IMG/VR virus record: IMGVR_UViG_3300017565_000001 | Span: 77,741 to 141,740 of that record | Direction: 5' to 3' (one strand) | DNA length: 64,000 nt | From: a virus | Taxonomy: Duplodnaviria > Heunggongvirae > Uroviricota > Caudoviricetes | Shown here: positions 7,105 through 63,911 of the stretch, one piece after another | Position numbering within the stretch: position 1 is the stretch's first letter | Layout: each line of letters opens with the position of its first letter | Program-made: the position numbers and the translations under genes | Notes under the pieces: model-generated | Databases searched by the model: none | Told to the model about the DNA's origin: nothing | What the model saw: only the letters and a program-made list of their open reading frames with translations

Positions 7105-7131
7105 AAAAGGGGCCCAAGGCCCCTTGTTTAT
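7105..7131. terminator. bidirectional intrinsic terminator
   Basis: AAAA-GGGGCC-CAA-GGCCCC-TTGTTTATTT. Lies between convergent genes. Confidence 0.65.
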
Positions 7132-7424: not shown

Positions 7425-7529
7425 TTTAGGTTATTGGGGACCATGTTCAAAATAATATTGCGACCCCTAGTACCAGCTATTACATTTGTGGCATAACTAG
7501 GTTGTCCATACATAAGAATAATAAGAAAC

Positions 7530-8069: not shown

Positions 8070-8772
8070 TGAAACCAAAAAGCTTATCAGCAAACAAGTT
8101 GCCCTGAACATTGACATTGTGACGCCATGTTTACGCATGACCGACTATTCGCTAATGCGAATGTTCAACCTCAAGAAGCAACAGTTGACGGCTCCCATTA
8201 ATGCATTTCGTAGAGCAAATGATATTTTGGCAGCTACGTTTGTTCATTACCTGGCTATCGACCAACAGAACGGCGATGACTGTATCGATGTGAATGGCAA
8301 CGCCATGGAAGTGAAATTGGCTTTCCTCAAAAGCGACGATCTGACTATCAGCAAACAGGGTAATGTGATTCGCAAAGGCAGTGAGAACGGTTTGATTCAT
8401 AATACTCAAGCCAAGTTTAGAGTCCATAACGGAACAGCCAAGGGTCATCACAACAAGGACACATCGTTCATCTTGATCTCAGAAGACCACGCTTGCTTCA
8501 TTGGTGGTTTTATCATGCGTGGCGATAAGGTTGATGAACTACTGACTAGTGGATCGCAAAAGGGTGTGAACAGAAAGATTTCATTGAGCCAATTCATCAA
8601 ACATGGTTATGAAATCAATAGTTCCGTTCCCCATATTGGTTGGGAGCGGTATCACGAATGCTTGAAGAACTTTGTTGCTGGTGCTGAGGGTATGTTGTCA
8701 GTACCACAAGCAGGTGAAGCACACAAAGCTTGGACAGAACTGGCGGATGTGAACAAGCTCCGAAAGTTGTAA
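8053..8772 (+). CDS. hypothetical protein
   Basis: 239 aa ORF. A hairpin GGCACCTTGGTGCC follows it. Confidence 0.5.
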   Translation: MLSISDETKKLISKQVALNIDIVTPCLRMTDYSLMRMFNLKKQQLTAPINAFRRANDILAATFVHYLAIDQQNGDDCIDVNGNAMEVKLAFLKSDDLTISKQGNVIRKGSENGLIHNTQAKFRVHNGTAKGHHNKDTSFILISEDHACFIGGFIMRGDKVDELLTSGSQKGVNRKISLSQFIKHGYEINSSVPHIGWERYHECLKNFVAGAEGMLSVPQAGEAHKAWTELADVNKLRKL

Positions 8773-8853
8773 AGAGAATGGCACCTTGGTGCCATTCTTG
8801 CTATATGGCATCACCATCACTATACTGATATTCTATTCTACCTGGAACTCATC

Positions 8854-9285
8854 ATGACTCACGCTATGTGGTCTTTCTTGGCAACGTCGTTGTTATTTGG
8901 TCTAATGATAGTCTTGCTCCAATCAAGACTACACCGGGTTATTCTGTTCCTGCTGTGGTTTTGGTTAGGGCTCATCACATATCCACAACCAAATGAACGA
9001 ATCCTTCCAGATGAATTCATCCTTGTTGCTGCTGTGGTGCAAGAACCACATGGCGATTACCAGGGAAGAATTTGGTTATGGGCTAGAACAAAAGAAGATC
9101 CTCTGACTCCTATTTCTTTTGATCTGCCATACGATCGAGAAGCGGCACAGGTAGTCAGGGGTTGGATTAAGAAGATTGGTGGTGGCAAGGCCGAGCTAGG
9201 AATCAATCTGAATGCTACTGAAGAATCAAAACAACAAGATCACGGGCCCCAACCATTGAAAGGGCCAAACGAACGAGGCACATAA
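8854..9285 (+). CDS. membrane protein, hypothetical
   Basis: Two N-terminal hydrophobic helices. Confidence 0.45.
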   Translation: MTHAMWSFLATSLLFGLMIVLLQSRLHRVILFLLWFWLGLITYPQPNERILPDEFILVAAVVQEPHGDYQGRIWLWARTKEDPLTPISFDLPYDREAAQVVRGWIKKIGGGKAELGINLNATEESKQQDHGPQPLKGPNERGT

Positions 9286-9286
9286 T

Positions 9287-9868
9287 ATGATCAAAATTTG
9301 CATTATTGGTAACGCTGGCTCTGGTAAGAGCACACTGGCTGGTAAGTTGTTCTCCGCACTTAAACCCAGTGGGGTTAACGTTGAACTGGTACCGGAATTC
9401 ATCCGCAATGACATCCAGATTAACGGTCCCATGCAAAGTGTGTGGGAACAGTACCGCACCCGCTTCAGCCAGAAGGAAATCGAAGATTCGCTCCCACCGT
9501 CAGTGGACTACGCAGTCATCGACTCAGGCACATTGACGCCATTCTTCTACACTTGTTTGTATTCCAACAAGGAAAACGAGCGTGAGCGTTTGGTTCTGCA
9601 GGACATGTATAAGTTCTTCCTGGACGACATTTACAAGCGCCGTTACGATTACGTATTTTTCCTGCCACGTGCGAAGACTTATGCAGCAAACCCCAACATT
9701 CTGACAGATGGAACCAGGTATCAGAGCGTTGACGAAATCGAAACCCTGGAAACGCATATGAATCTGTTCTTTGGCAATCTGCACAAGCTCAGCAATATTC
9801 ATGTGCTCAATTGTGAACTAGACGAACGTCTGGGAACTGTTTTGGAAATTATCGGCTATAAGGGCTAA
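9287..9868 (+). CDS. P-loop NTPase / nucleotide kinase-like protein
   Basis: Walker A IIGNAGSGKSTLAGKL at the N-terminus. 193 aa. Substrate unknown. Confidence 0.6.
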   Translation: MIKICIIGNAGSGKSTLAGKLFSALKPSGVNVELVPEFIRNDIQINGPMQSVWEQYRTRFSQKEIEDSLPPSVDYAVIDSGTLTPFFYTCLYSNKENERERLVLQDMYKFFLDDIYKRRYDYVFFLPRAKTYAANPNILTDGTRYQSVDEIETLETHMNLFFGNLHKLSNIHVLNCELDERLGTVLEIIGYKG

Positions 9869-9870
9869 TT

Positions 9871-10194
9871 ATGTCGTACCGTATGTTCATTGATGACGAC
9901 CGATTCCCTCCTGGGGATGAAAATGATTGGGCGATCTGCCGCAATCTGTTTGAAGTCCAACTGGTGATCGATCATGAGGGAATGCCATCATTCATCTCGT
10001 TCGACCACGACTTGGGCGCAAATCAACCGTCTGGTATGGACATCACTAAGTGGTTGGTTGAGTCTGAATTGGATGGAAAGCTTTCTTTTCCTGAGGATTT
10101 CGACTTTTACGTCCACAGCCAGAATCCCACTGGCGCTGGTAATATCGAGGGTCTACTTCGACAATATTTGCAACAACGCAAGATTGCACCTTGA
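9871..10194 (+). CDS. hypothetical protein
   Basis: 107 aa, acidic. Translationally coupled to the kinase gene. Confidence 0.45.
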   Translation: MSYRMFIDDDRFPPGDENDWAICRNLFEVQLVIDHEGMPSFISFDHDLGANQPSGMDITKWLVESELDGKLSFPEDFDFYVHSQNPTGAGNIEGLLRQYLQQRKIAP

Positions 10195-10251
10195 CTAATT
10201 GGCTTGCCAATCGTAAACTGACTTACATGCTAATCATCTCGGTAAGGACCC

Positions 10252-10548
10252 ATGACTGACACCACTCTCCAAAACCAGACCGTCACCAAGACCGCTACGA
10301 TCTCCTTGTGGAATCTGATCCTGCTGAATGACGATTTCACCCCGATCGACTTCGTGATGCAAGTGCTGATTGAACTCTGTGGCAAGACTGATCAAGAAGC
10401 ATACGCAATCACGATGGACATTCACAACACTGGGCGTGGCGTCGTTTCGACCTACACGGAAGAAATCGCCAAGCAAAAGGCCCACGACATCACGCTGATC
10501 GCCGCGCAGAACAAACATCCGCTCAAAGCGATCGCTGAAGAAGCATAA
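10252..10548 (+). CDS. clpS: ATP-dependent Clp protease adaptor ClpS
   Basis: LILLNDDFTPIDFVMQVL...HNTGRGVVSTYTEEIA...QNKHPL is collinear with the ClpS core (VILVNDDYTPMEFV...HYQGKAICGVFTAEVAE...ENEHPL). Confidence 0.85.
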   Translation: MTDTTLQNQTVTKTATISLWNLILLNDDFTPIDFVMQVLIELCGKTDQEAYAITMDIHNTGRGVVSTYTEEIAKQKAHDITLIAAQNKHPLKAIAEEA

Positions 10549-10570
10549 CAGGTAACTGGTCCTAAATACT

Positions 10571-10600
10571 GGGGAGAACAATTGTTCTCCCCATCAACTT
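10571..10600 (+). terminator. intrinsic terminator
   Basis: GGGGAGAACAATTGTTCTCCCC hairpin followed by a T-rich tract. Confidence 0.6.
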
Positions 10601-10633
10601 TTCCAGCTTACATTTTGACAACATGATTTCGCA

Positions 10634-12205
10634 ATGTTAAAGTGTAGCCACAGAATAAGCTGTCAACCAACAATAAGAACAATGATTAGACAGAAAAAAT
10701 ACGGTAATGATTGGGCAATATTTTTGCCCTCGATTTCACAAATGTACGTTTTGGCACATGCAAAGGGCTGGGGTCGTATGCCAGTTGACTTTGATCTGCT
10801 GAACTTCGTTGATGAAGCGAACGCTCATCACTTCCACTATCCATACGCCCTGTATTCGGCCGGCCATGCTTACTTGGATCCCCAAAAGAGCAATGAACGT
10901 GAACCCATGATTCAAGGCCGTGATCGTACCAAGACGATTATGGTTGGTGACTCGGGTGGGTTCCAGGCCGCAACCGGCGTCCTGGATTTTGACTGGCAGG
11001 ATCCATTGAGCCAGAAGTCGATCGATCAACGCTTGGAGTTGATGCGCTGGCTTGAGCACACGGCCGAATACAGTATGGTTCTTGATTGGCCGGCTTGGGC
11101 TATTGACACTGGACGTCTGCCTCAAACCCTTATGGTTGCAGATCCCACGACTTCGCCCATGCAAGTCACGAACGATCCGTTCAACAACTGCTTGAAGGGC
11201 ACAATCTGGAACAATGAATTCTTCATCAAGAATCGCACACCAGGAGCCACCAAGTTCCTAAACGTTCTGCAAGGTCGTTCAATCGACGAAGCAAACGTGT
11301 GGTATGACGCAGTGAATCAGTTCAGCAGTGTTGAGAAGTATGGTGATCGAGCATTCGAGGGTTGGGCTCTGGGGGGTAGCACCGGGGGCGATCCCAGCCT
11401 CACCATGCGTCTTTTGATTCGACTGCGCGACGACGGACACCTTAATGGTGATGATCGCTGGATTCACGTCCTAGGGCGTTCCAGGCTGTCAACTGCCGTG
11501 TACTTGACGTCACTGAACCAAGCACTCAAACAACACGTAAATGAGAACTGTCAGATCAGCTACGACGCATCAAGTGCGTTCCTGTACTCGGTTAATGGCA
11601 CATACGTGACTGACTTCAATGTGTCACCCAAGCATATGGGTCTAGTGAGCGCTGACATTCCAATGGGTGCTCAATACGTGGGAAGCAAGGAACCCTTCAT
11701 CTATGCAGGTGTGTCTGCTGATCGTTTGGCCGATCCCACCCACTATAAGTCACCAGCCAGCAAGTTGCTGACTATGGGTGATTTGATTCTAGCTCCTGAC
11801 GAAAAGTCCAAGAAGCCATACAGGATGGATACTGCGTCCTACTATTACTTGATGGCGCATAATGTCCAGATGCAATTGAATGCTCTGGAATATGCAAACG
11901 CAAAACTGGACGCCCCCGATGCTGTGGATCATATTCCTGCCATCTTCCTGGAATTCAAGGACTTTGTGCATCGTTTGTTCACTACCGAAACGCCCATGGA
12001 TTTGATCGAACGTGAAGCTGGTAAGTTCAAGGATTTGATTTCTGGTGAGCGTGCTGGTGTTAGCGCACTGGAAAATCAAGAACTGTTCCCCAAGACAGCT
12101 GGTCTGGAAACGATCACGACTGACAACCGCGCCAAGAAGAAGGCACAAAAGCCGCCCAAGCCCGTGGAACCCACTAGTATGTTGGACGCTTTGCTGGCCA
12201 AGTGA
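10634..12205 (+). CDS. dpdA: DpdA-like DNA transglycosylase (tRNA-guanine transglycosylase superfamily)
   Basis: GDSGGFQ catalytic-Asp motif of TGT/DpdA. GWALGGSTGGD at the TGT GG-loop position. No CxCxxC...H zinc site, as in DpdA. Start likely at one of the ATGs at 10743-10790. Basic KKKAQKPPKP tail. Confidence 0.65.
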   Translation: MLKCSHRISCQPTIRTMIRQKKYGNDWAIFLPSISQMYVLAHAKGWGRMPVDFDLLNFVDEANAHHFHYPYALYSAGHAYLDPQKSNEREPMIQGRDRTKTIMVGDSGGFQAATGVLDFDWQDPLSQKSIDQRLELMRWLEHTAEYSMVLDWPAWAIDTGRLPQTLMVADPTTSPMQVTNDPFNNCLKGTIWNNEFFIKNRTPGATKFLNVLQGRSIDEANVWYDAVNQFSSVEKYGDRAFEGWALGGSTGGDPSLTMRLLIRLRDDGHLNGDDRWIHVLGRSRLSTAVYLTSLNQALKQHVNENCQISYDASSAFLYSVNGTYVTDFNVSPKHMGLVSADIPMGAQYVGSKEPFIYAGVSADRLADPTHYKSPASKLLTMGDLILAPDEKSKKPYRMDTASYYYLMAHNVQMQLNALEYANAKLDAPDAVDHIPAIFLEFKDFVHRLFTTETPMDLIEREAGKFKDLISGERAGVSALENQELFPKTAGLETITTDNRAKKKAQKPPKPVEPTSMLDALLAK

Positions 12206-12429
12206 TGGAAGATACCATTCTATTCTTCAAAGCCGAGTATTTGGGTGAAGTTAGGGAATGGCTCGAGGCCATGGGGGTTAACCCCCATGACGCCCTAAGC
12301 AAATTCCCCAAGTTACGGATAGATGGAATTGAGATCTTGATCCTCCCAGATCCGGATCTACAGATGATGTTCAAGCTCGCATTCAGCCATGCCGTATCAA
12401 ACAAATCAATCAAGATAACAAAGATATGA
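12202..12429 (+). CDS. small protein of the FKL(R/A)F-motif family
   Basis: Contains DPDLQMMFKLAFSH near the C-terminus. Paralogous to the 12900 gene. Confidence 0.5.
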   Translation: MMEDTILFFKAEYLGEVREWLEAMGVNPHDALSKFPKLRIDGIEILILPDPDLQMMFKLAFSHAVSNKSIKITKI

Positions 12430-12495
12430 TTGACGTTTGCTACTAATTGACAACGGGCCACCAATAAGCCATACTGAATACACTAACAAGGAACT

Positions 12496-12903
12496 TTGAT
12501 GTATAACAACCCCGTCCCCGTAGCTGTGGGGATTGTGCCAGTTTATGGCGATGATCAAACCGAACGCTTTCTGTTTATTCGCCGAGCAGTGGCACCAATT
12601 GGTGGTGTGGCTTGTGTGAGTGGGTACGTTGATGAACACGAATCCGCAGAACAAGCAATGGCAAGGGAATTCAAGGAAGAGGTTGGTATCGAGACTCTTC
12701 CAGAAAATTGGGTTGTGTTTGCCACCCGCTGCTCGGCGCACAATCGTCTGTTGGTATTCATGAAGCTAGTCAACTACCTGGTTCATGAAGATGACCTGAA
12801 TAGCTTTGTGCCCAATACCGAGGTTTCGGAAGTTCTAGTGGGCGATCGCCATACTGAACTTGTGTTCCCTTTGCAATCGGAAATTCTCAGCAAGCTCCCG
12901 TGA
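12496..12903 (+). CDS. Nudix hydrolase
   Basis: Nudix box GYVDEHESAEQAMAREFKEEVGI (GX5EX7REUXEEXGU). Confidence 0.8.
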   Translation: MMYNNPVPVAVGIVPVYGDDQTERFLFIRRAVAPIGGVACVSGYVDEHESAEQAMAREFKEEVGIETLPENWVVFATRCSAHNRLLVFMKLVNYLVHEDDLNSFVPNTEVSEVLVGDRHTELVFPLQSEILSKLP

Positions 12904-17492: not shown

Positions 17493-18569
17493 ATGTCGGT
17501 AACTATTCCCGAAAAGGTGTACGTGGGGTTTCAGGGTCGGCGCGATCAAGACGAAGTACCACTGGGTTTCATGACGCCGTACACGGATGACGAGGCTGGC
17601 AAGAAACGCCAGTCAACTGTTGATCAATGGGCTGGCGGTCGCAACTACGGCAAAACCAAGACGTTCAACAGTGTCATCATCGACAACGAACCCATGTATG
17701 GATTCCGACTGGGACGTGCGATTCGTCGTTCGGGCCACTTTGGCTCCGGTGCCTCGTATGTTCGTATCGAAGACCCCAGGGGCTTTGAGCTGGAAATCAG
17801 CATCGAGAACTTGGTTGCTATTCTGGAAGACGTTGCGATGGAGCGCTGTGAATTCGTGGGCGCTCTTATTTGGGGCCGTGTTGCCGGCAGTCAAAAGAAC
17901 CTGCTTATGGCGGTTGACAGCGATCTGTATCGTGGCGCAGTCAAAACCAAGGCAGCAGTTGCCCAGGCCCTCCCATGCAAAGATTTCAGTATTGGCGACA
18001 AGATCGAAGCAGTGACTGGTGAAACCGGCATCTACATGGGTATGCTGTATGGCGTATCTGATGGTTGGAAAGAGCCCGAAACCATGTCTGGCAAGAAGCC
18101 GGTACTGAAAGTCACGTATGATGACAATTCCGTAGAATACGTGGGGTTCGTGGATCTCAAGGGTTCCATCTTGGAGAAGCATACTGGTAATGCGTTGACG
18201 GTTCAGGATTCCGAAAACGAAATCGCTGCCGCCCTAGCCGTCAATCAGTTCATATGCGATTACAAGGGAACAACAGACGTTATCGCCTGGTTCGCCAAGA
18301 AACCACACATTATTTCTACCCACAAGGCAGTGGGTGAAGATCAAATGCACGTTCTGTTTGACAACGACCCGAGTTCATATTCGTATTTCAAATGTCGAGT
18401 AGGTTATGGCACGGAATACACTATGAAGCGCGATGACAATCGAGTGATTACGATTCAAAAATCCTATCACTATAGCAGTCAGCCCACCCATATCAATATC
18501 GAATGGGACAAAGTTGAACTCGCCGGCCATAAGATCAGCAGCGCGACTAATTCCGTCGACTATTTCTAA
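17493..18569 (+). CDS. hypothetical protein, paralogue L1
   Basis: Shares VYVGFQGRR...PLGFMTPY...KRQ.TVDQWA...FNSV...PMYGF.LGRAIRRS...ASYVRIEDPRGFELEISIENLV with the 18578 and 24603 genes. Confidence 0.65.
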   Translation: MSVTIPEKVYVGFQGRRDQDEVPLGFMTPYTDDEAGKKRQSTVDQWAGGRNYGKTKTFNSVIIDNEPMYGFRLGRAIRRSGHFGSGASYVRIEDPRGFELEISIENLVAILEDVAMERCEFVGALIWGRVAGSQKNLLMAVDSDLYRGAVKTKAAVAQALPCKDFSIGDKIEAVTGETGIYMGMLYGVSDGWKEPETMSGKKPVLKVTYDDNSVEYVGFVDLKGSILEKHTGNALTVQDSENEIAAALAVNQFICDYKGTTDVIAWFAKKPHIISTHKAVGEDQMHVLFDNDPSSYSYFKCRVGYGTEYTMKRDDNRVITIQKSYHYSSQPTHINIEWDKVELAGHKISSATNSVDYF

Positions 18570-18577
18570 GGAAGCAA

Positions 18578-19912
18578 ATGAACGAACTTTCCACCATCAA
18601 GATCCCGCAAACCGTTTATGTGGGCTTCCAGGGTCGTCGTGCAGTCGATGAGGTTCCTCTGGGGTTCATGACGCCCTATGATGAGACCAAGGCAGGCCAG
18701 AAGCGCCAGCAGACGGTTGATCAGTGGGCGAAAGGTTGGGGGAGTAACAAGACCTTCAACAGCGTGACTCTGGAAAACGTTCCCATGATCGGCTTCAAGA
18801 TCGGCCGGGCAATTCGCCGCAGTCGTTCTTGGGGTGGAAATGCTTCCTACGTGCGCATCGAGGATCCGCGTGGTTTCGAACTGGAAATCAGTATCGAGAA
18901 CATGGTCATGGTGATGGATCAAAACATCGTCGAAGACGGTGAGATCATGCAAGAGTGCGTGTGGGGCCGTGATGGTGGCAAAAACATTCTGTTGCCAACC
19001 AACAGCGAACCCTATCAGGCTTCCCTGAACACCACCAAACGCCTCAATGCCGTTCTGTCTCTGAAGGACGTCAAGCCGGGCAGCAAGGTGAAACTGGTGA
19101 CTGGTGAAACCGGTATCTATTACGGTTCGCTCTATCCAATCTTCATCAAACATGAAGCCGAACATACGGATACTCGTTCTGGTTACCGCCACGAACGAAA
19201 TACTACAGAGGTGTACACCCCGGAAATTCGTGGGACGAAACGGTACATTCTGTATACGTCGAAGGGTAAGAAGGGAACCTTCAACGTTTACGCAAGTATC
19301 AAAGTGGCCGAAGTTTTGGAGGAAGCCAAGGAAAAGCTCAAGCCCCAAGATGTCGAGAAGCTGATTGCCACAAAGATTGCCGAAGGCAATAATAAGTTTG
19401 TCAATCATGTAAGCTCGACCAGTTACTACGATCGATTCGTGGGATTGGCGGCCGATCAGACGCTTGACTACGCGATCGTCCAGAAAGACATTGCAGAAGA
19501 TTACGCAAAGACGTTGAAGCACAATCGATATGGAACGACTTACGCCAGTCGTTCCATCTACATGGAGAGTGCTGATGGTCAAATCTATACGGCCAGCAAT
19601 GGTTACATGGATTTCACAACCAACTTCCTGCAGGCAAAGAATACTCCGCGTAAGTATGCGAATATCATGCTGTGTCCGAATCCTGGCAGTTATTGGTCCC
19701 GACATGATGCTGAGATTGAAGTTCAAGGCGGTTTCATCGGCATCAAGGCTGATCTGACAGAAGAAAAAGTTACCGAGTACAAATTCCATCAGCAACAATG
19801 GCATGTGACTGATGAAGAGTTGAAGCGTCTGTTCGTGCTTGACGTGGTGATCAAACTGAAGAGTGGTGAACAATATGTCTATGACTTCGGACGTCAAGAC
19901 ACCGACGACTGA
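18578..19912 (+). CDS. hypothetical protein, paralogue L2
   Basis: N-terminal ~110 aa are near-identical in pattern to L1. 444 aa. Confidence 0.65.
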   Translation: MNELSTIKIPQTVYVGFQGRRAVDEVPLGFMTPYDETKAGQKRQQTVDQWAKGWGSNKTFNSVTLENVPMIGFKIGRAIRRSRSWGGNASYVRIEDPRGFELEISIENMVMVMDQNIVEDGEIMQECVWGRDGGKNILLPTNSEPYQASLNTTKRLNAVLSLKDVKPGSKVKLVTGETGIYYGSLYPIFIKHEAEHTDTRSGYRHERNTTEVYTPEIRGTKRYILYTSKGKKGTFNVYASIKVAEVLEEAKEKLKPQDVEKLIATKIAEGNNKFVNHVSSTSYYDRFVGLAADQTLDYAIVQKDIAEDYAKTLKHNRYGTTYASRSIYMESADGQIYTASNGYMDFTTNFLQAKNTPRKYANIMLCPNPGSYWSRHDAEIEVQGGFIGIKADLTEEKVTEYKFHQQQWHVTDEELKRLFVLDVVIKLKSGEQYVYDFGRQDTDD

Positions 19913-22352: not shown

Positions 22353-23567
22353 TTACATGGTTTGATTTTGCATATATTGCAACAAAGCCTCACGTGACAC
22401 GTTGCAATCGTTGTAGAACCAGTATTCCCGCAGGCGCTTCAACGCCGCACCCAAGTCAGGACCAGGTTTCACACCCAACGCCTTTAAGTCATCACCACTG
22501 ACCGGAAACGTCGCTAATTGAAACTTACCGTCCAGGCCTCGCTTCAGCAAATTAACGGCGTAGTCAACATCAAAGTAAACTGCCGCGGCAAAAACCAACT
22601 CCAGCTTCCGCCCCATGACGAAATACTGATACAGGATTTCGGTCGCAGTGACAGCGTAGTCATATGAGACGATGTGCTTGACTACGTCGCGTTCAGCGGA
22701 ACGCCATTTCAATGCCTTGGCAGTTTGCTCAACATGTGCTTCATCGCGCATGAAAGGTGCGAGCAAAACAGCCGCCTGATTACCAAGCATGTGCCGAGCC
22801 ATACTGTCGTGCAACTTTTTGAACCATTCCATGGACGCGGAATCACCGTTAGGCAGAGCAGTATGCTCACTCAAACCCATCTCCATCATGAGGGGATAGA
22901 TCCAATAGCCGCTGAAATGTTCGAGGATCTTGGATGTTTCAGTCCAGATCCGTTCGACACTGATGCCACGCAATCCATGAACACAGTTGCGGATTTCTTG
23001 CTCGGGCAATATGGACTTCAGCTTTTCAGGATGCGGTTGCACTGGATGCATACGGCCCAAGAAACGAAAATAGCGCAAGATGCGCAGATAGTCTTCCGTC
23101 ATACGACCTTCTGCATCACCAACAAAGCGGACGATTCTGTTTTCCAGATCAGCTTGGCCGCCGAAAGGATCCAACAGATTGCCGTCGAAATCAAGCGACA
23201 TTGCATTGATGGTGAGGTCACGACGTGACAAGTCTTCAACCCAGTCACGAGTGTAGGTCATCTTAGCGTAACGGCCGTCGTGCTCGTCCTCAGTACGCAG
23301 ACTGGTGATCTCGTAGGATTCATCCTCCAGAACTACAGTCAGTGTGCCATGCTGCAAGCCCGTTTCCACATACTTGATGCCATGCTTCTGATACAATGCC
23401 AATTGCTCATCAGGGAAGGCGTCAGTGCAGAGGTCCACGTCATGGGGCGGCTCGTTGTTCAGATAATCTCGCACACACCCGCCAACCAAACGCAGGTCAA
23501 AGCCCTCCTGTACGAACAAGTCGCGCAGCGCACGCAAGGGAAGAGGTATCATTTGATTGAGGTGCAT
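22353..23567 (-). CDS. cca: tRNA nucleotidyltransferase (CCA-adding enzyme), class II
   Basis: GGCVRD head motif and RDLTINAM. 404 aa. Confidence 0.85.
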   Translation of the reverse strand: MHLNQMIPLPLRALRDLFVQEGFDLRLVGGCVRDYLNNEPPHDVDLCTDAFPDEQLALYQKHGIKYVETGLQHGTLTVVLEDESYEITSLRTEDEHDGRYAKMTYTRDWVEDLSRRDLTINAMSLDFDGNLLDPFGGQADLENRIVRFVGDAEGRMTEDYLRILRYFRFLGRMHPVQPHPEKLKSILPEQEIRNCVHGLRGISVERIWTETSKILEHFSGYWIYPLMMEMGLSEHTALPNGDSASMEWFKKLHDSMARHMLGNQAAVLLAPFMRDEAHVEQTAKALKWRSAERDVVKHIVSYDYAVTATEILYQYFVMGRKLELVFAAAVYFDVDYAVNLLKRGLDGKFQLATFPVSGDDLKALGVKPGPDLGAALKRLREYWFYNDCNVSREALLQYMQNQTM

Positions 23568-24602: not shown

Positions 24603-25796
24603 ATGTCAGTCAATCATAGTATTCAAATTCCCGATCAGATGTTTGTGGCTTTCGTTCGTAGCAATCAGGATGGCTACGTCCACAAAGGTTATACCATTCC
24701 CTATGGCACTGACTCAGCTTCCAAGAAGCGCCAACTCAACTTGCGGCATTCAACCCATGCCGATCGTGAAGGTGGGCTTGAGCCAGTAGTCTTGGAAAAT
24801 AAACCCATGTACGGGTTTAAGATTAGCCGCAAGCTTCGAGCAAACGGCTGGCGTTCTGATATTCAAACCGTTAGCATCGAAGATCCCAGAGGTTTCGAAT
24901 TTGAAGTTTCGGTTGCCAATCTGATCATGCTTACCGACAGCAATTTGATTCATAATGGCGAAATTATTCAGCAATGTGTATGGGCTCGCGATGGTGCAAT
25001 CAACATTTTGCTTCCAATCAATAGCCAACCATATCTGGATGCCGTTGTGAACACTGAGCGGGTATCCAAGCGAGTCAATACTCGATCGGTAAAACCAGGC
25101 AATAAGGTTCTCCTGCATGATGGCATTAAGGGTGTTTACATGGGTTCCATGTATACCATCATGCGTGATTACAACCGCAACTTGAGCATTTCACAAAAGA
25201 AGAAACACATCGTTCGTGTTGAAGGCGATAGTGGTACTTCGGTGGAATATCATGGTTACCCAACAATGAAAATTTCCGAGGTGTTGGATTCCACTCCCCA
25301 AACCAAAGAAGCATTGAGCCAACAGTTGGTGAATGACATCAAGGATAAGACGGTTACATTCCGGAAAGTCACGTCTGGCTATGGGCATGTGTCAACGCTC
25401 ACGTATGGTGACACCTTGATCTTTGCCAAGAAGGAACGGCGGTCGATTTCATACGATGAAGCTATGAAAGCCAAGAGCAACAGTTCGATTTTGGGCGTTT
25501 ATGATGACGAATGTTACCTGATCGAAGGCAACAGTATGGACCCCAATTATCGGTCTTATTACTACCGAAGCCTGGGAGTTGATGAAGTCCAGGCTGTGAA
25601 GATCAACGTATTTGCTTTGGATAAAGGCACGATTGAAATTGTTCAAGAGTACAATATCAACTCATCAAGTTATTACCGTAGTAGGGAACAGAAAACCTAT
25701 CAGATCAACAAGGATGAGATTGACTATTTTGTCTTAGAGTTGACGCTTAAGGATTCTGAGACCAACGTCAACTTCCACGTTAACGATTTGAAATAA
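24603..25796 (+). CDS. hypothetical protein, paralogue L3
   Basis: PMYGFKISRKLRANG...SIEDPRGFEFEVSVANLIMLT is collinear with L1 and L2. Confidence 0.65.
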   Translation: MSVNHSIQIPDQMFVAFVRSNQDGYVHKGYTIPYGTDSASKKRQLNLRHSTHADREGGLEPVVLENKPMYGFKISRKLRANGWRSDIQTVSIEDPRGFEFEVSVANLIMLTDSNLIHNGEIIQQCVWARDGAINILLPINSQPYLDAVVNTERVSKRVNTRSVKPGNKVLLHDGIKGVYMGSMYTIMRDYNRNLSISQKKKHIVRVEGDSGTSVEYHGYPTMKISEVLDSTPQTKEALSQQLVNDIKDKTVTFRKVTSGYGHVSTLTYGDTLIFAKKERRSISYDEAMKAKSNSSILGVYDDECYLIEGNSMDPNYRSYYYRSLGVDEVQAVKINVFALDKGTIEIVQEYNINSSSYYRSREQKTYQINKDEIDYFVLELTLKDSETNVNFHVNDLK

Positions 25797-36549: not shown

Positions 36550-37899
36550 TTGGCGCCAGATCAGCTATACTGGCACCTGTTCCTATTCGTCACCGGAGAA
36601 AATATTTTGATTGACACCTTTTTCGCATTGCTGGCACTAATTATCGTGTCGGCAGTGTTGCAGAATCGATACAAGATTCCGTCACCCATCACCCTCATCA
36701 CGGTCGTTCTTGCTGGTAAAGCCGCAGGCATGAACGTGTTCTCGGTCACCGGTTCAGGATTCGATGCCTTGGTGGTGTTGGCGTTCCCACTACTCATTGC
36801 GGCTGATGCCATGAAACTGAAATGGGCAGACATGCGCGAACACTGGGCCAGTTTGGTCTGGGTTGCAGGTGTGTCCGTCATCTTCAGTGTGTTGGCGGGT
36901 GTGGTACTGAACAAATTCTTGTTCCTGGATATTCCTCTGACTCTCAGCGCTGTTGCGGTTCTGTTCTGCATCATCAGTGCAACCGACCCCGTGACAGTAA
37001 GTGCCGTGATGGGCAACTTCAAAGTACCGCACAAGCTGAAGATTCTGGTCGAGGGTGAAAGCCTGTTGAACGACGCAACGGCCATTATTGCATTCAGCAT
37101 TGCGCTCATTGCACTGAACTCTCACGATGCTATCACCATGGAATTCGTTGGCACCAAGATCATTAGCGTGATTTGCGGCGCCGCGGTAGTGGGTGCCACG
37201 TTGGGTTTGCTGTCGTTCCGATTGCTGCGCATGAGTGAAGATCCGTTGATCGAAGCATCCATTCTGATCATGACCGCATACGCATCCTATATCGTGGCTG
37301 AAATGTTCCACTTCAGTGGAATCCTGGCTGTGATTGTGAGCATTGTGCTCTGCAGTGAAAAGATTCGCCGACTGCTAGACGGCCAGGTTACGGTGAGTGG
37401 TCTGACTGATGACTTTGGATTGTTGCGTCATACTCCCATGACAGCCGAAAACCACAAGTTCATCACCAAGATCTTTGAATTTGCGGCGATGATGGCTGCT
37501 GGTGCTCTGTTTGTGTCGATCGCTGCTCTGGTCAATTTCAGTGATATGCTCCTGTACTGGAAGGAAATCATTGCTATCTTCATCGTCAGCACCCTGATTC
37601 GATCAGTCACCATGTTGAAGTTTGCGATCGTCAGCAACAAGTCCAACATGATGAAAGCAAAGATCAGCAAGCATTGGTGGTCGGTTCTCACGTTTGCTGG
37701 CAGCAAGGGTGCGATAAGTATCTTGATGGTACATATGATCCCTGACTCCTTTGAGTACAAGAAGCTCTTTGAAGTCATCGTGATCGGCAACATTATTTTG
37801 AGCACGTTTGTTTACGCGGCTGTACTGGCTATCGTAATCCCGCTCAACAAAGCAAAATTTGACAAGGAAGTCGACGACGAAGTGGCTGCTGGCCACTGA
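36550..37899 (+). CDS. CPA1-family Na+(K+)/H+ antiporter
   Basis: About 11-12 TM helices. SATDPVTVSAVMG and EGESLLNDATAIIAF are signature motifs. Confidence 0.8.
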   Translation: MAPDQLYWHLFLFVTGENILIDTFFALLALIIVSAVLQNRYKIPSPITLITVVLAGKAAGMNVFSVTGSGFDALVVLAFPLLIAADAMKLKWADMREHWASLVWVAGVSVIFSVLAGVVLNKFLFLDIPLTLSAVAVLFCIISATDPVTVSAVMGNFKVPHKLKILVEGESLLNDATAIIAFSIALIALNSHDAITMEFVGTKIISVICGAAVVGATLGLLSFRLLRMSEDPLIEASILIMTAYASYIVAEMFHFSGILAVIVSIVLCSEKIRRLLDGQVTVSGLTDDFGLLRHTPMTAENHKFITKIFEFAAMMAAGALFVSIAALVNFSDMLLYWKEIIAIFIVSTLIRSVTMLKFAIVSNKSNMMKAKISKHWWSVLTFAGSKGAISILMVHMIPDSFEYKKLFEVIVIGNIILSTFVYAAVLAIVIPLNKAKFDKEVDDEVAAGH

Positions 37900-37924
37900 A
37901 TAAACTCTAACCTGTAGGTGAAGT

Positions 37925-39211
37925 ATGAAGAAGCGTAATTATTTGATGGTGGGCTACGGCTCTGTGGCTCAAGGTTTGACTCCCCTGCTGTTCAAGCATT
38001 TTGATATAACGGCAGACCAGATTCAGATCCTGACAGCTGATCTCAGAGGTAAAGAGATTGCTGACAAATATGGGATCCCCTTTACGGTGGAACCCCTAAC
38101 ACCAGACAACTATGAACGCTTATTGAGCACTCATTTGCAGGCTGGTGACATCCTGATCAACTTGTCAGTTGACGTGTCCAGCTACGCATTGGTTGAATGG
38201 TGTTTGGAACATGGCGTCATGTACACTGACACCTGTGTGGAACCGTGGGCTGGTGGTTATGGACTCCAAAGCGGAGATCAACCCCTAACCAACGCTCAAC
38301 TACGTGACAATATTTTGACCCTGCGTGAAACGTTTGGTGCTGACGCACCCACGGCTCTTATTGCGCATGGTGCGAATCCAGGTTTAGTGTCCCATTTCAT
38401 GAAGCGTGGTCTCCACGAGATGGCGAAGAACCAACGACTTGACGTTGACGATCTGTCTTTTGGGGAAGTTGCCGAACTTCTAGGGATCAAGACGATTCAC
38501 ATAGCGGAAGTGGACACACAAGAGGATGGCATTCCCCTTAAGTCGGGTGAATTTGCCAATACTTGGTCTGTCGATGGTTTATTGTCAGAAGGCTATCAGT
38601 TTGCTGAAATGGGTTGCGGTACCCATGAAGAATTGGGCATCAGTGCGACGACTGGTACTCATGGAGCAACTACCAAAGTTCGTTCATGGGTACCGAGCCA
38701 GGGTGAGCAAGAAGCTTACATGATCACGCACCACGAAGCTCTGTCTATCAGTGCATTTCTGGATACTGGTAAGTATCGCCCGTCAACCTATTACGCATAT
38801 CGACCGTCACCAAAGACGTGCCAGTCAATCGATAATTGGGTAGAAGATCAATTCAAAGATCCTGAAATAAAAACGCTCATGGGCCCTACCATCAAGTCTG
38901 GCTATGACGAGCTGGGAGTTTTGTTCGTCACTTCAGTTGGCTCTTATTGGTATGGTTCCACACTGAATCATCAAGATGCAATTTCCTTGATCGATCACAA
39001 CAGTGCAACCACCCTTCAAGTCACTGCGACTATTATCGGTGGCCTTAAGTGGATGCTTGAGAACTCTCGCAAGGGTGTGGTCGAAGCGGAAGACACGGAT
39101 TCAGACTTCATTCTGAATCAAGCATTGCCATATCTGGGTGATGTTCGTGGCGTCTCCACTGACTGGACCGTTAGCGATTTGAGCATCAAAGGTTTTCTGA
39201 AAAGTTGTTGA
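37925..39211 (+). CDS. homospermidine-synthase-like / saccharopine-dehydrogenase-fold enzyme
   Basis: Rossmann fold MVGYGSVAQGLTPLLFKHF resembles the HSS N-terminus. 428 aa. Confidence 0.6.
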   Translation: MKKRNYLMVGYGSVAQGLTPLLFKHFDITADQIQILTADLRGKEIADKYGIPFTVEPLTPDNYERLLSTHLQAGDILINLSVDVSSYALVEWCLEHGVMYTDTCVEPWAGGYGLQSGDQPLTNAQLRDNILTLRETFGADAPTALIAHGANPGLVSHFMKRGLHEMAKNQRLDVDDLSFGEVAELLGIKTIHIAEVDTQEDGIPLKSGEFANTWSVDGLLSEGYQFAEMGCGTHEELGISATTGTHGATTKVRSWVPSQGEQEAYMITHHEALSISAFLDTGKYRPSTYYAYRPSPKTCQSIDNWVEDQFKDPEIKTLMGPTIKSGYDELGVLFVTSVGSYWYGSTLNHQDAISLIDHNSATTLQVTATIIGGLKWMLENSRKGVVEAEDTDSDFILNQALPYLGDVRGVSTDWTVSDLSIKGFLKSC

Positions 39212-39263
39212 TTTGGTAGTGCCAGTTGTTTAGGCTGGCACACCTTAACTTCTACCTATAAAA

Positions 39264-39638
39264 ATGAAACGATCCGCAGTTATTCCGCTCCTGATGCTTG
39301 GCACTCTGTCACTCACCGCTTGTGGTGATGGTGGTGATAAGGTTGACACCAAACAAAACCGCTATTCGTCAGTTGAAGATTGCCGCCGTGATTGGGGTAA
39401 CGATTCGCGTGACTGTACTCCCAGAAGCGGGGGCGGCTATGTGGGCCCGCATTACTTTTGGAACCATTCAACCGGCACGCCCATGGCGGTTGGATCGGAT
39501 GGTTCGACTCGCGCACTCTCAAATTCGTATTTGACCCGCCCTGGTGCGGTGTCTGCTGCGACTGGTACCACTTCACAGAGCTCGATTGCTCGTGGTGGTT
39601 TTGGGTCTTCGGCCCGTGCTTCCTCTGTTGGTGGCTAA
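39264..39638 (+). CDS. DUF1190 (YgiB/YjfM-like) lipoprotein
   Basis: Lipobox LSLTAC. C-terminal IARGGFGSSARASSVGG matches the YgiB C-terminus TRGGFGES...SRSMGG. Confidence 0.6.
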   Translation: MKRSAVIPLLMLGTLSLTACGDGGDKVDTKQNRYSSVEDCRRDWGNDSRDCTPRSGGGYVGPHYFWNHSTGTPMAVGSDGSTRALSNSYLTRPGAVSAATGTTSQSSIARGGFGSSARASSVGG

Positions 39639-40759
39639 TGGAACGTCTTCATGTTATGGCTCGGCCAGATAAGGCCGAGAAGCTGGAAAGTATCGGCCTG
39701 TCGTTCCATGGTTGGGATGACTATTGGAACGAAGACGTGTGTTATCGTTTCACGGCAAAGCAAGTTGATGAACTGGAAGAGGCCACAAACGAATTGCATT
39801 CCATGTGTCTTCGAGCAGTCAAGCATGTGATCGATACCCGCCGATTTGCTGAGCTGGGTATTCCCGAAGCATACTGGGATGCAATCGCCAAGTCTTTCGA
39901 ACAAAGCGACTTCACGCTTTATGGTCGGTTTGACTTCGCGTATGATGGCGTGAATCCTCCCAAGATGCTCGAATACAATGCTGACACGCCAACCAGTCTG
40001 CTGGAGAGCGCCGTCGCACAATGGTATTGGATGGAAGACAAGTTTCCAGATGCTGACCAATTCAATTCTCTGCATGACAAGTTGGTTGCTCGCTGGAAAG
40101 CCCTCGATCCCAAGTATCACACTATTCACTTCGCTTCAATCTCTGAAAACGAGGAAGACTGGGTATGCGTCCATTACTTGATGGAAACTGCAATCCAGGC
40201 TGGTCGCATTGCTCGTCACATCTATGTTGAAGACATTGGCTACAATGAAAAGAGTGAAACGTTCGTTGATGTCAATGGTGATGAGATCCTGGCTTTGTTC
40301 AAACTGTACCCCTGGGAGTGGTTGATGGTTGAGGAATTTGGCCAGCACGTTGCCAAATCCAAGACATTGTTTATCGAGCCCATGTGGAAGTCAGTCCTGA
40401 GCAACAAGGGAATTCTGGCTATCTTGTGGGAATTGTTCCCCGATCATCCCAACCTGTTGCCTGCATATCTGGAACCCAACAAGCTGTCATCGTACGCAAA
40501 GAAGCCATTCTTCTCACGTGAAGGTGCGAATGTCGAACTGATTCAAGATGGCAAACAAGTTGCTGCCGACGAAGGTCCCTACGGTGCAGAAGGCCATGTC
40601 TATCAGCAACTCACTGAATTACCGGTATTCGAAGGATGCTATCCAGTCGTTGGCTCATGGGTTGTTGGTGACGAGTCGGCTGGTATTTGCATTCGCGAAG
40701 ATGTGCTGAAGATCACCACCAACATGAGCAATTTCATCCCCCACTATTTCACTGAATAA
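39639..40759 (+). CDS. glutathionylspermidine-synthase-like ATP-grasp amidoligase (YgiC/YjfC family)
   Basis: FDFAYDGVNPPKMLEYNADTPTSLLE is the GspS pre-ATP-grasp signature. About 373 aa. Confidence 0.75.
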
Positions 40760-40774
40760 TCAAGGAGCTTTAAC

Positions 40775-41167
40775 ATGAATCTTACCCCTTTCTTCAATTT
40801 CATCCTGTACTTCTTCACAGGGCTGGTCCTGCTGGGCGTCTTCACCTACATGTACGAAAAGGTCACGCCGTACCGTGAATTCGAACTCATCAAGGAAGGC
40901 AATGTTGCCGCAGCCATTGCACTTGGTGGCGCGATGCTGGGTTTCGTGATCCCGCTCTGCAGTGTGATCTATTTCACCCATAGCCTGGTTGAAATGATCA
41001 AGTGGGCGATTGTAGTTGGTGTGGTGCAACTCATTACCTTCGAAGTCATTCATCGCTTGCATGGTTTTGGTGATTGCGTCAAAGAAGGTCGGGTTGCTGG
41101 TGCAGTATTCCTGGCTTTCAGCTCGATCTCGGTTGGTTTGCTGAACGCACTGAGTATCAGCTACTAA
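40775..41167 (+). CDS. DUF350 (YjfL-like) inner-membrane protein
   Basis: YEKVTPYREFELIKEGNVAAAIALGGAMLGFVIPL matches the DUF350 core. Confidence 0.65.
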   Translation: MNLTPFFNFILYFFTGLVLLGVFTYMYEKVTPYREFELIKEGNVAAAIALGGAMLGFVIPLCSVIYFTHSLVEMIKWAIVVGVVQLITFEVIHRLHGFGDCVKEGRVAGAVFLAFSSISVGLLNALSISY

Positions 41168-61641: not shown

Positions 61642-62601
61642 ATGAATACTGATTACATCCTGGTGACTGGTGGAGCGGGCTTTATTGGCTATCACGTATG
61701 TGTGGGCCTATTGACTGCCGGCCATAGAGTGGTTGCCGTTGACAGCTTGAATGACTACTATTCAGTCAAACTGAAAAGAGACCGAATTGAATATTTGAAG
61801 AAATTGGGGGTCGAATTTAAATGGTTCCCCATAGAAACGCCGACCATCTTTGACAGCGTTATGGCCAAATATCAACCCCGAGCCGTCATTCATCTTGCAG
61901 CTCAAGCGGGTGTCAGGTATTCTGAACAGAATCCCATGGCCTACACGATGGCAAACCTGGTTGGGTTTCAAGAAGTAATTGATGCCTGCAGGAAATACAA
62001 GCCAGAACGTCTACTTTATGCCAGTTCATCAAGTGTTTATGGTAACGTCCAGGGCCCCGCAAATGAGGATCTGCCAGTCAATCCTTTGAGTTACTACGCA
62101 GTTACGAAGGTCGCTAATGAAATGACGGCTAGGCTCTTTGGTGAACAAACCAGCATACCCACGATTGGGATGCGCTTTTTCACCGCATATGGTCCATGGG
62201 GGCGCCCAGATATGGCGTATTGGCATTTCAGTGAAAAGATTCTGAGTGGTTCACCGTTGACCATATATGGCCAAAATGTGGCTAGAGACTTTACCTATGT
62301 GGGCGATGTGGCGGATGCCGTGATCGATCTGATGAAATGTGAATCAACTGGCAATAAAATAATCAACATTGGCAGCAATAATCCCATTTCTGTTGTAGAG
62401 TTAGTGAATAAGCTTCAGAGTCATTATGGCAAACCAGCCGTAATTCAAACTGATAATTTGCCATCTTGTGATCCCCAAATCACATATTGTGATCCCTCAA
62501 GATTACAAGCACTGACTGGGCGAGTCCCCAAGACTTCATTTCAAGATGGTATCAATAAGTTTGCTGAATGGTTTCTAGCATATAACGAAAGATACAAATG
62601 A
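61642..62601 (+). CDS. NAD-dependent UDP-glucuronate 4-epimerase-like SDR
   Basis: ILVTGGAGFIGYHV, NDYYSVKLKRDRIEYL, YASSSSVYG and YAVTKVANE (YxxxK). Confidence 0.8.
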   Translation: MNTDYILVTGGAGFIGYHVCVGLLTAGHRVVAVDSLNDYYSVKLKRDRIEYLKKLGVEFKWFPIETPTIFDSVMAKYQPRAVIHLAAQAGVRYSEQNPMAYTMANLVGFQEVIDACRKYKPERLLYASSSSVYGNVQGPANEDLPVNPLSYYAVTKVANEMTARLFGEQTSIPTIGMRFFTAYGPWGRPDMAYWHFSEKILSGSPLTIYGQNVARDFTYVGDVADAVIDLMKCESTGNKIINIGSNNPISVVELVNKLQSHYGKPAVIQTDNLPSCDPQITYCDPSRLQALTGRVPKTSFQDGINKFAEWFLAYNERYK

Positions 62602-63911
62602 AAATTGCCGTAGTTGGTTGTGGGTTTGTGGGGCTGGCTAATATCTTGGCCCTTGCCAGTAAAGGCCATGAAGTCCTTGGCGTCGAGAACAGCCCTGAAC
62701 GCTTTAATCGATTGGCTGCTTGGCGGTCACCTGTTCATGAGCCCATGTTTGATCAATTGTTGGAACAGGCTCGGGATAACGAACTGGCTGGATCGATTTC
62801 ATTTGCAAACAGTACTGACATCTTTGCCAATCAAGAATTTGATATGGTATTCATTACTGTATCAACGTTGCACCAAAACAACACTCTTACGGAAGCCAAA
62901 GTCAGTGAAGTGTTGCAAGAAGTCGTATCGTTTTATGGCTCCCGCAATCGGGCCCCGATGGTTGTGATGAAGGGCACGAATCCACTTGGTACTGCGGAAT
63001 CTGTCATCAAACGATACAAGCTATCCCCTGACTTCAAATTGATCGTGGCACCCGAATTTCTAAGGGAAGGTCATGCGTTTGATGACGTTATGACCCCGTC
63101 CAGACATGTGATTGGTACTTCAGATTCATTGGTGGACGAAAAATTCAAGAAAGTAATTGACGATTTCCCCGCCGAGCAGTTCTGGATGAGTCACGCACAA
63201 GCCGAGTATGTGAAGACGTCATGCAACAGTTTGTTGGCGGCTCAAATCGCACTCACGCAGGAAATCATTCGAGGCGCTGATCGGCTACATATTGAATCTG
63301 ATTCAATCATGAACGCCATCAAAGCAGATCCACGGCTTAACGGCTATGGGCGGAATGCTGCTATCGGCTGGGGTGGTTCGTGTTTGCCGCCATCTTCTTT
63401 GGAGATGCGTAAACATTCCACGAGTGATTCTCTCCTTCATTACGTGAGTTCGTCGCTCACTGCCAATATAGCTCATTGGGCAACTAAGCTAGGCAATCAT
63501 CTATCAAGTGAAGTGTCTAGCATCGGTGTATGGGGTCTGGGTTTCAAAGAGGGATCAATGAACACCTCTAATTCACCAGTCATAGCCCTATTGAATCACA
63601 TCGTAGCCAGACACGCGGTTTCCAGTATCAAGGCATATGTTCCCGGATACAAGGGGTCAGTTGAAAATGTTCGGATTTCAAACATAGCTGAAGCGAAACT
63701 GGTTGATGATCCCACTGAGGCCATCAGAGATGTTTCGCTCATCATTCTGGGTTGCCCTGATAAGGAATTCAGAGAATACGATCCCGTTATGGCAAAGCTT
63801 ATTGCCAGCAATGCATTTGTGTTTGACGGATTCAACGATCTGAACCAAGCCTCTTGGGAAGGTGCCGGATTCATCTATATGGGGCTGGGTAGGGAAACCT
63901 ACCGCAAGTAG
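62598..63911 (+). CDS. ugd: UDP-glucose 6-dehydrogenase family protein
   Basis: MKIAVVGCGFVGLANILALASKGHEV NAD-binding N-terminus. C-terminal GLGFKEGSMNTSNSPVIALL (UDPG_MGDP_dh_C). Confidence 0.8.
   Translation: MKIAVVGCGFVGLANILALASKGHEVLGVENSPERFNRLAAWRSPVHEPMFDQLLEQARDNELAGSISFANSTDIFANQEFDMVFITVSTLHQNNTLTEAKVSEVLQEVVSFYGSRNRAPMVVMKGTNPLGTAESVIKRYKLSPDFKLIVAPEFLREGHAFDDVMTPSRHVIGTSDSLVDEKFKKVIDDFPAEQFWMSHAQAEYVKTSCNSLLAAQIALTQEIIRGADRLHIESDSIMNAIKADPRLNGYGRNAAIGWGGSCLPPSSLEMRKHSTSDSLLHYVSSSLTANIAHWATKLGNHLSSEVSSIGVWGLGFKEGSMNTSNSPVIALLNHIVARHAVSSIKAYVPGYKGSVENVRISNIAEAKLVDDPTEAIRDVSLIILGCPDKEFREYDPVMAKLIASNAFVFDGFNDLNQASWEGAGFIYMGLGRETYRK

Follow-up and report, generated by a model that had tools for sequence, protein, structure and literature searches.

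A linked homospermidine synthase and YgiC/YjfC-type ligase cassette in a giant phage: a probable auxiliary polyamine module

Viral genes for polyamine enzymes have only recently come to be recognised as a class of auxiliary metabolic genes. The closest described relatives of the system considered here are gene clusters of Achromobacter phage Motura and several beta-proteobacteria, in which homologues of hss, the gene for homospermidine synthase (HSS), and of 'gss' lie together with genes labelled 'hypo' and 'DUF' (Li et al., PNAS 2023, PMC9992855, Fig. 4B); the product suggested for them was glutathionylhomospermidine. Ralstonia phage phiRSL1 carries hss and gss unlinked, and its HSS is biochemically functional (PMC9992855). 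Here we analyse the same four genes, in the same order and orientation, in a stretch of 64,000 nucleotides from the IMG/VR virus record IMGVR_UViG_3300017565_000001 (positions 77,741 to 141,740 of that record; hereafter, the window). They encode an HSS, a short lipoprotein of the DUF1190 type, an ATP-grasp ligase and a DUF350 membrane protein. Because the cassette has already been described in Motura and the beta-proteobacteria, the window supplies a new example and not a new system. Our results indicate that the block probably serves a giant phage as an auxiliary polyamine module, in which homospermidine would be made and a polyamine ligated to the carboxylate of a peptide other than glutathione, with the envelope as a possible destination.

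The ligase and its partners also have relatives in Escherichia coli, where the genes are ordered yjfL-yjfM-yjfC and ygiB-ygiC. For YgiC and YjfC, an in vitro activity that joins peptides to spermidine has been reported (Pederick 2023, cited in PMC11762307), whereas glutathionylspermidine (Gsp) synthetase activity is reported to be lacking (Sui 2012, cited in PMC11762307 and PMC12506659). RefSeq product names concur with a peptide-spermidine ligase activity. A first-pass annotation of the window, made by a model from the sequence, had described the function of this neighbourhood as still unknown; that is outdated as regards the in vitro activity, while it still holds for the physiological substrate. 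A third setting is provided by operons in which PspA and an ion channel accompany a ligase, DUF350 and DUF1190 (Ravi et al., mSystems 2024, PMC11237479).

The open reading frame (ORF) of the ligase spans 39458-40759, within which an ATG at 39638 overlaps the stop codon of the lipoprotein gene (TAATG) and is almost certainly the true start, giving a protein of 373 residues. This protein matches Pfam GSP_synth (PF03738) at 5e-151 and aligns end-to-end with the structures of YgiC (7uk8, 7e-101, query 1-373 to chain 9-394) and YjfC (7uk6, 2e-92). Glutathionylspermidine synthetase (GspS) and trypanothione synthetase match it at just 1e-29 to 1e-36, GspS itself at 1e-29, and over the C-terminal part only. 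The window ligase shares with E. coli GspS (EcGspS) and the trypanosomatid trypanothione synthetases the fold family, the seven triphosphate and catalytic residues and the polyamine-site Glu; what it does not keep of them are the N-terminal CHAP amidase domain, which is absent, leaving the synthetase domain only, and the glutathione-binding residues. The strictly conserved seven of EcGspS are R316, D318, E330, N332, K498, K533 and R598 (Fyfe et al., PMC2427367), a set made up of the ATP-grasp triphosphate, Mg and transition-state residues. All seven are kept in the window ligase, as R97, D99, E112, N114, K257, K289 and R353, so that the ATP-grasp catalytic Arg and Glu on which the first-pass call of a GspS-like protein hung are retained, together with Asp, Asn and Lys. 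The polyamine-site Glu, E391 in GspS, is kept as E172, whereas the aligned residue is Val in YgiC and Asp in YjfC.

The glutathione site presents a different picture from the catalytic core. EcGspS S335, D387, E392, A443 and T446 correspond to T117, I168, E173, P225 and W228 of the window ligase; E392 alone is conserved, and S335 is conservatively swapped for Thr. At the position of EcGspS C338 the window protein has S120, a Ser as in YgiC and YjfC, and the altered pocket as a whole follows the pattern of those two enzymes. Because the pocket is altered, the amidase is missing and the match to GspS is weak, and in view of the enzymology of E. coli YgiC and YjfC, we assign the window ligase to the YgiC/YjfC type and not to the glutathione ligases, and predict that it is a peptide-polyamine ligase. 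Its acceptor would not be glutathione, since the glutathione pocket is not conserved. Its phage relatives include phiRSL1 ORF052 (66% identity) and Motura gp273 (61%); in database annotations, such phage genes are labelled 'glutathionylspermidine synthase'.

The first protein of the block matches Pfam Sacchrp_dh_NADP (7e-27) and Sacchrp_dh_C (5e-15), and all 14 of its matches in the PDB are homospermidine synthases (1e-90 to 2e-72, spanning residues 3-416 of 428), headed by those of Legionella (2ph5, 1e-90) and P. aeruginosa (6y87, 2e-89) and including Blastochloris viridis HSS (BvHSS, 2e-74). The NCBIfam model for carboxynorspermidine synthase matches weakly (E 0.0047). The substrate-binding and catalytic residues of BvHSS are N162, E210, W229, E237, H296, E298, Y323 and D361, and those of its 'ionic slide' are D94 and E117 (Krossa et al., PMC4725965; in our alignment the paper's numbering is the chain numbering plus 2). 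Their counterparts in the window are, in the same order, N151, E195, W214, E222, H269, E271, Y290 and D328 for the catalytic set and D83 and E106 for the slide; Y123, Y325 and T396 are conserved as well, as Y112, Y292 and T362. The same active-site residues are invariant in the orthologues of Motura and of an IMG/VR contig (L040). The protein, described in the first-pass annotation as HSS-like, thus has its place among genuine HSS enzymes, and none of the BvHSS substrate-binding and catalytic residues that were checked is missing from it. Against the characterised enzymes (B. viridis, P. aeruginosa, Legionella, phiRSL1 and chlorovirus PBCV-1) it aligns over the full length with all of these residues conserved, while being some 45 residues shorter (428 as against ~470-480), through shortening at both ends and several small internal deletions. 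Identity is 50% to the HSS of Motura and 35% to the biochemically validated enzyme of phiRSL1. From the complete conservation of the active site, we infer that the window HSS produces sym-homospermidine.

The relationship between the HSS and the remaining three genes was explored by searching bacterial and viral genomes. An HSS alignment was used to search 185,579 species genomes, and nine of the best 80 HSS loci have HSS, DUF1190 and ligase genes in the order and on the strand of the window, seven of these also showing DUF350. The nine comprise Massilia, Herbaspirillum, Uliginosibacterium and beta-proteobacterial or unclassified proteobacterial metagenome-assembled genomes, the identifiable carriers all being beta-proteobacteria, and their ligases are 60-66% identical to that of the window. 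The genes flanking these bacterial cassettes are unrelated to one another, with no shared transporter or regulator found beside them, which argues that the block is a self-contained cassette. Among viruses, a search of other phages for the four-gene block had been recommended, and it returned Motura, where the order is substrate-binding protein, HSS, lipoprotein, ligase, small ORF and DUF350, and a 243-kb contig, IMGVR_UViG_3300017565_000017; in IMG/VR these were the only linked instances. That survey used a three-sequence HSS alignment, a scan of IMG/VR with a single HSS sequence having given no matches.

Linkage is only one form that the association takes. In three large IMG/VR contigs the HSS gene lies ~90 kb from a DUF350-DUF1190-ligase trio, and in phiRSL1 HSS and ligase are both present at separate places. 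A further, phage-like contig of 439 kb (L157; JGI 3300055083 contig Ga0540634_0000004) has at 7001-12732 the lipoprotein, ligase and DUF350 genes followed, 2.4 kb downstream, by the gene for a 462-residue HSS, which is a third arrangement of the four genes. The ligase occurs in 145 of the 50,697 INPHARED records and HSS in two phages, both of which also carry the ligase; some 143 phage records therefore have the ligase without HSS. Where HSS is found in the larger phage genomes and contigs, the ligase trio is usually present too, whether linked to it or not, and this argues that HSS and trio belong to one pathway. Neighbour-joining trees, which are rough and carry no bootstrap values, place the cluster-linked HSS and the cluster-linked ligases each in a clade of their own; the window HSS falls in such a clade, apart from the characterised enzymes, and the phage copies of HSS group together.

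The lipoprotein bears a signal peptide and an L-T-A-C lipobox, conserves the segment Y-x-S-x-x-D-C...W-G...C and terminates in RGGFG followed by a tail of ten residues ending in Gly-Gly (…IARGGFGSSARASSVGG). Its identity is 54% with Motura gp274 and 41% with phiRSL1 ORF051, and Sinorhizobium phage Phosso has, as the gene upstream of its ligase, an unambiguous DUF1190 member (4e-25). When 13 of the short proteins were aligned by hhalign with 12 canonical DUF1190 proteins, mature sequences being used, the two groups matched with 93.5% probability (E 2e-7), and a joint profile run against a database of 5.8 billion proteins retrieves both kinds, the DUF1190 proteins that Pfam recognises and short ones like that of the window. 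On these comparisons, we treat the protein as a short DUF1190 variant.

Its C-terminal tail deserves particular attention. Across the motif set (window 39264-39638, L001-L042 and P0001-P0081), RGGFG stands at a fixed distance of 10 or ~20 residues from the DUF1190 C-terminus. The chain ends in Gly-Gly in 63 of 81 cluster representatives (78%) and in Gly in 70 of 81, whereas the share of Gly in the rest of the tail is only ~20%. A strict rule of C-terminal Gly-Gly was considered and dropped, several phage copies ending in GS, GA, SA or GE; for that reason the doublet is to be regarded as a tendency only. In 32 of 35 viral ligase loci, an adjacent ORF carries a DUF1190-type RGGFG tail, making the pairing of DUF1190 and ligase close to obligatory in viral loci. 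Since enzymes of the GspS family activate the C-terminal Gly carboxylate of glutathione, the tail is a plausible natural acceptor, and its features suggest, without proving, that it is the acceptor of the ligase.

The last protein of the block is a DUF350 member (Pfam PF03994, 2e-33, 115.5 bits against a cut-off of 26), with hydrophobic segments at ~3-27, 42-68, 70-93 and 105-129 in a hydropathy scan; it is 63% identical to Motura gp271 and 31% to E. coli YjfL. In five IMG/VR loci (L011, L013, L014, L016 and L041), the place usual for DUF350, ~700-900 bp upstream of the ligase, is taken by a 72-residue protein with two transmembrane (TM) segments (MNLPENFWIGVFGS...), which may be a half-size DUF350.

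Immediately upstream of the block, and ending 25 nucleotides before the HSS gene, is a gene for a Na+/H+ exchanger (Pfam PF00999, Na_H_Exchanger, 1e-31, 110.7 bits against a cut-off of 26.2). It also matches TIGR00831 at 4e-37, yet with a score under the equivalog cut-off. The ORF opens with TTG at 36550; a second TTG at 36607 is preceded by a GGAGA ribosome-binding site and is the probable start. The translation shows the motifs SATDP and ESLLNDA, of which ATDP and ND are the conserved TM4 and TM5 motifs of CPA1 transporters of the NhaP type. No close relative of the exchanger was found in INPHARED, IMG/VR or metagenome contigs, the metagenome matches being of bacterial type and only 30-35% identical; matches to 'phage' entries in tblastn were set aside, as they were mostly bacterial contigs mislabelled as phage. 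The exchanger may belong to the module, for instance in maintaining pH or cation balance, as its adjacency and its co-conservation in a related phage would allow.

That related phage is represented by a 25-kb Logan contig (L156), a close relative with the gene order of the window: Band_7, RNA ligase, LamG, Hydrolase_2, a 116-residue gene, Na_H_Exchanger (430 residues, at the same position), HSS, lipoprotein, ligase and DUF350. Between the two phages, the ratio of non-synonymous to synonymous substitution (dN/dS), with synonymous sites near saturation, is 0.027 for the exchanger (97% amino acid identity, the most conserved gene of the neighbourhood), 0.022 for the lipoprotein (94%), 0.040 for the ligase (90%), 0.069 for HSS (85%) and 0.34 for DUF350 (66%). 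All genes of the module are under purifying selection, which is strong on the exchanger. A phage-encoded Na+/H+ exchanger this strongly conserved is unusual. These values lead us to regard the module genes as functional and maintained; the cassette in the phage is intact and selectively maintained.

The layout of the locus is given in Table 1. The four ORFs of the first-pass annotation are all present on the plus strand at the positions it called, and the gene set DUF1190, GspS-like and DUF350 that it recognised is reproduced, whereas the yjf order that it read into the block is not: in E. coli, yjfL (DUF350) precedes yjfM (DUF1190) and yjfC, while in the window, and likewise in the beta-proteobacterial hss clusters, DUF350 comes last. 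Scans for promoters and terminators returned only background, with no convincing terminator inside 36550-41167, and operon boundaries are accordingly deduced from spacing only. The inverted repeat between the HSS and lipoprotein genes lacks a T-run, the terminator scan made no call there, and a stem-loop in the mRNA is possible at this point.

Table 1. Genes and other features of the polyamine locus, with positions in the window
Feature	Position	Strand	Remarks
CPA1-type Na+(K+)/H+ exchanger	36607..37899	+	~430 aa; possible fifth module member
HSS	37925..39211	+	428 aa; short cluster-associated subtype, NAD-dependent (predicted)
Inverted repeat GTGCCAG-9 nt-CTGGCAC	39219..39241	+	HSS/lipoprotein intergenic gap; read from sequence
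Short DUF1190-type lipoprotein	39264..39638	+	124 aa
YgiC/YjfC-type ATP-grasp acid-amine (peptide-polyamine) ligase, predicted	39638..40759	+	373 aa
DUF350 (YjfL-like) inner-membrane protein	40775..41167	+	130 aa; four hydrophobic segments

The phage itself can be placed through its topoisomerase II large subunit, for which the counterparts in Sinorhizobium phage Phosso (469 kb) and Agrobacterium phage Atu_ph07 (490 kb) show 63% and 57% identity, respectively; these identities place the window in a giant phage of the Phosso/Atu_ph07 group. A megablast of the block against INPHARED gave zero matches and the phage is, therefore, without a close sequenced relative in that collection. The module matches the remaining phage sequence in GC content and in GC content at third codon positions (GC3).

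Set beside the described systems, the window differs from each in a few respects. With respect to Motura, the lineage is that of Phosso/Atu_ph07-like giant phages and not Moturavirus, the upstream gene encodes a CPA1 exchanger where Motura has an NMT1/TAXI-like substrate-binding protein, and the extra small gene that Motura has between ligase and DUF350 is missing. The E. coli ygiB-ygiC and yjfL-yjfM-yjfC loci have in common with the window the DUF1190 and DUF350 partners, the catalytic residues of the ligase and the altered glutathione pocket; the window lipoprotein, in contrast, is about half as long (124 residues versus 212-223), HSS is added, and no gene for PspA, YjfI, YjfK or TolC lies near the block. 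The PspA-associated polyamine operons likewise combine a GspS-related ATP-grasp ligase, DUF350, a DUF1190 lipoprotein and an ion-transport protein. In them, though, ion transport is represented by a K+ channel and not a CPA1 exchanger, and the polyamine enzyme is an S-adenosylmethionine decarboxylase or a polyamine oxidase and not HSS; genes for PspA, CesT/Tir-like and DUF2491 proteins are absent from the window block.

In the mechanism that we propose, the HSS would use NAD+ to condense two putrescines, or putrescine and spermidine, into sym-homospermidine, as its active site suggests. The ligase, acting in the cytoplasm, would activate a carboxylate as an acyl-phosphate and couple this to a polyamine through a primary amine of the latter, a chemistry suggested by the catalytic residues and by the in vitro peptide-spermidine activity of the E. 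coli homologues; the polyamine so joined would most likely be the locally made homospermidine. The exported DUF1190 lipoprotein and the four-TM DUF350 protein might then direct the conjugate to the envelope, as their gene linkage hints, and an envelope role fits these lipoprotein and membrane partners. That a polyamine is made and then joined, at the expense of ATP, to a peptide or other acceptor, as put forward in the first-pass annotation, is thus the best-supported reading, with intact active sites and with co-occurrence of HSS and trio across phage lineages. Several points weigh against it. Even in E. coli, the physiological substrate or acceptor of enzymes of the YgiC/YjfC type is not known (PMC11762307, PMC12506659); the phage ligases of this type are without published biochemistry, and no assayed member of the cluster-linked HSS clade was found in the literature. 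That the ligase uses homospermidine is deduced from linkage only, and many phages carry the ligase trio without HSS. The lipoprotein scores below the Pfam gathering threshold for DUF1190 (PF06693; 16.1 bits against 22, E 0.015), and its orthologues in Motura (20.9 bits) and phiRSL1 (15.7 bits) score weakly too. The ligase would be cytoplasmic but DUF1190 exported, leaving their mode of cooperation unclear, and the exchanger, the relative L156 apart, is missing from every other instance of the cassette.

These points bear differently on the other explanations that might be offered. Were the ligase a true synthetase of the glutathionylspermidine type, the module would make glutathionyl-homospermidine, as Li et al. 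proposed for the Motura and beta-proteobacterial clusters (PMC9992855); the catalytic core common to GspS and the annotation of the phage genes as 'glutathionylspermidine synthase' speak for such a product, but the far better match to YgiC and YjfC than to GspS, the missing amidase domain, the glutathione site reduced to E392 and the want of Gsp synthetase activity that PMC11762307 and PMC12506659, citing Sui 2012, report for YgiC and YjfC make it improbable. An unlikely, though more credible, account has HSS and the trio travelling together with independent functions: HSS would raise the pool of free polyamine, to serve replication and translation and to neutralise the charge of a very large genome, and the trio would serve an unrelated end such as buffering of host spermidine or envelope stress. 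Stand-alone viral HSS genes in chloroviruses and many IMG/VR contigs, together with the need of phage replication for polyamines (PMC9992855), favour independence, as do the ~143 phage records with ligase and without HSS; because so many phages have the trio alone, the trio can be taken to be independent of homospermidine. Against a merely fortuitous association stand the recurrence of the linkage in identical order in bacteria and phages, the parallel clades of HSS and ligase, and the presence of the trio, linked or unlinked, in almost all large phage genomes and contigs that have HSS.

Two further proposals concern the molecule to which the polyamine is joined. If the C-terminal carboxylate of the DUF1190 lipoprotein were the acceptor, (homo)spermidine would be attached before export and the envelope would receive a polyamine-tipped lipoprotein. 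The activation by GspS-family enzymes of a C-terminal Gly carboxylate (PMC2427367) and the ligation of peptides to spermidine by E. coli YgiC and YjfC (PMC11762307) lend this proposal some attraction, as do the Gly-rich ends, the fixed position of RGGFG, and the adjacency of DUF1190 and ligase in viral loci, the two being translationally coupled in the window. The lipoprotein, though, has a signal peptide and lipobox and the ligase has neither; as the ligase is also ATP-dependent, tagging would have to precede Sec export, and those phage tails that end in GS, GA, SA or GE do not conform. We hold this acceptor to be unlikely, and the extended version, with DUF350 as membrane partner, HSS as supplier of the polyamine and the CPA1 exchanger supporting the reaction or its effect on the envelope, to be doubtful to the same degree. 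The first-pass annotation had also pointed to polyamine conjugates of phage DNA. Phage DNA containing putrescinyl-thymine exists, and a hypermodified base bearing a polyamine in that manner has this analogy alone in its favour; it receives no support here, the identical cassette being found in bacterial chromosomes with unrelated flanks and its fixed partners being a lipoprotein and a membrane protein, with no DNA-acting enzymes. To our knowledge, ATP-grasp ligases play no part in the known pathways of thymidine hypermodification. The ORFs scanned, those around the block and the larger ones of the window, a subset of those in 64 kb of a genome probably exceeding 400 kb, included no gene for nucleotide or DNA modification such as a hydroxymethylase, DNA kinase or transferase, and we consider this proposal highly implausible. 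Ligation of a polyamine to a peptide carboxylate other than that of glutathione accordingly remains the reading that we favour as probable.

The remainder of the window contains several other genes of note. A gene for an SPFH/Band-7 membrane-scaffold protein (31565-32446, plus strand, Pfam 2e-34) is situated ~4 kb before the module, with a counterpart in L156; the polyamine/PspA operons described in PMC11237479 include Band-7 proteins among their partners. Two genes for SleB-like cell-wall hydrolases (Hydrolase_2; 28965-29657 and 35436-36167, plus strand) are ~6 kb apart, and a small hydrophobic ORF (36082-36525) follows the second, just before the exchanger. Adjacent concanavalin-A-like/LamG ORFs at 34015-34767 and 34706-35365 are the sole minus-strand genes of a plus-strand stretch; the window has two of them and L156 one. 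On the plus strand, a gene for an NAD-dependent sugar epimerase/dehydratase (61642-62601) overlaps one for a UDP-glucose/GDP-mannose dehydrogenase (62598-63911), and the pair looks like a nucleotide-sugar module. Three paralogues (17493-18569, 18578-19912 and 24603-25796, plus strand) all match phrog_6266, phrog_2475 and phrog_30990. The topoisomerase II large subunit (726-2585, minus), a tRNA nucleotidyltransferase (22353-23567, minus) and an RNA ligase (32723-33754, plus) belong to the typical gene stock of giant phages; the window yielded no tRNA gene in an ARAGORN search.

With this locus, the linked HSS-ligase cassette gains a third phage lineage, or a fourth if an IMG/VR contig is counted. 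The name glutathionylspermidine synthase should not be applied to the ligase, and this changes the product to be sought in Motura-type phages and in the beta-proteobacteria that carry the cassette. The Gly-Gly tail of DUF1190 provides a lead on the function of E. coli YgiBC and YjfLMC, and if the lipoprotein were indeed the acceptor, it would represent a new modification of protein C-termini, present in E. coli (YgiBC, YjfLMC) and in many phages.

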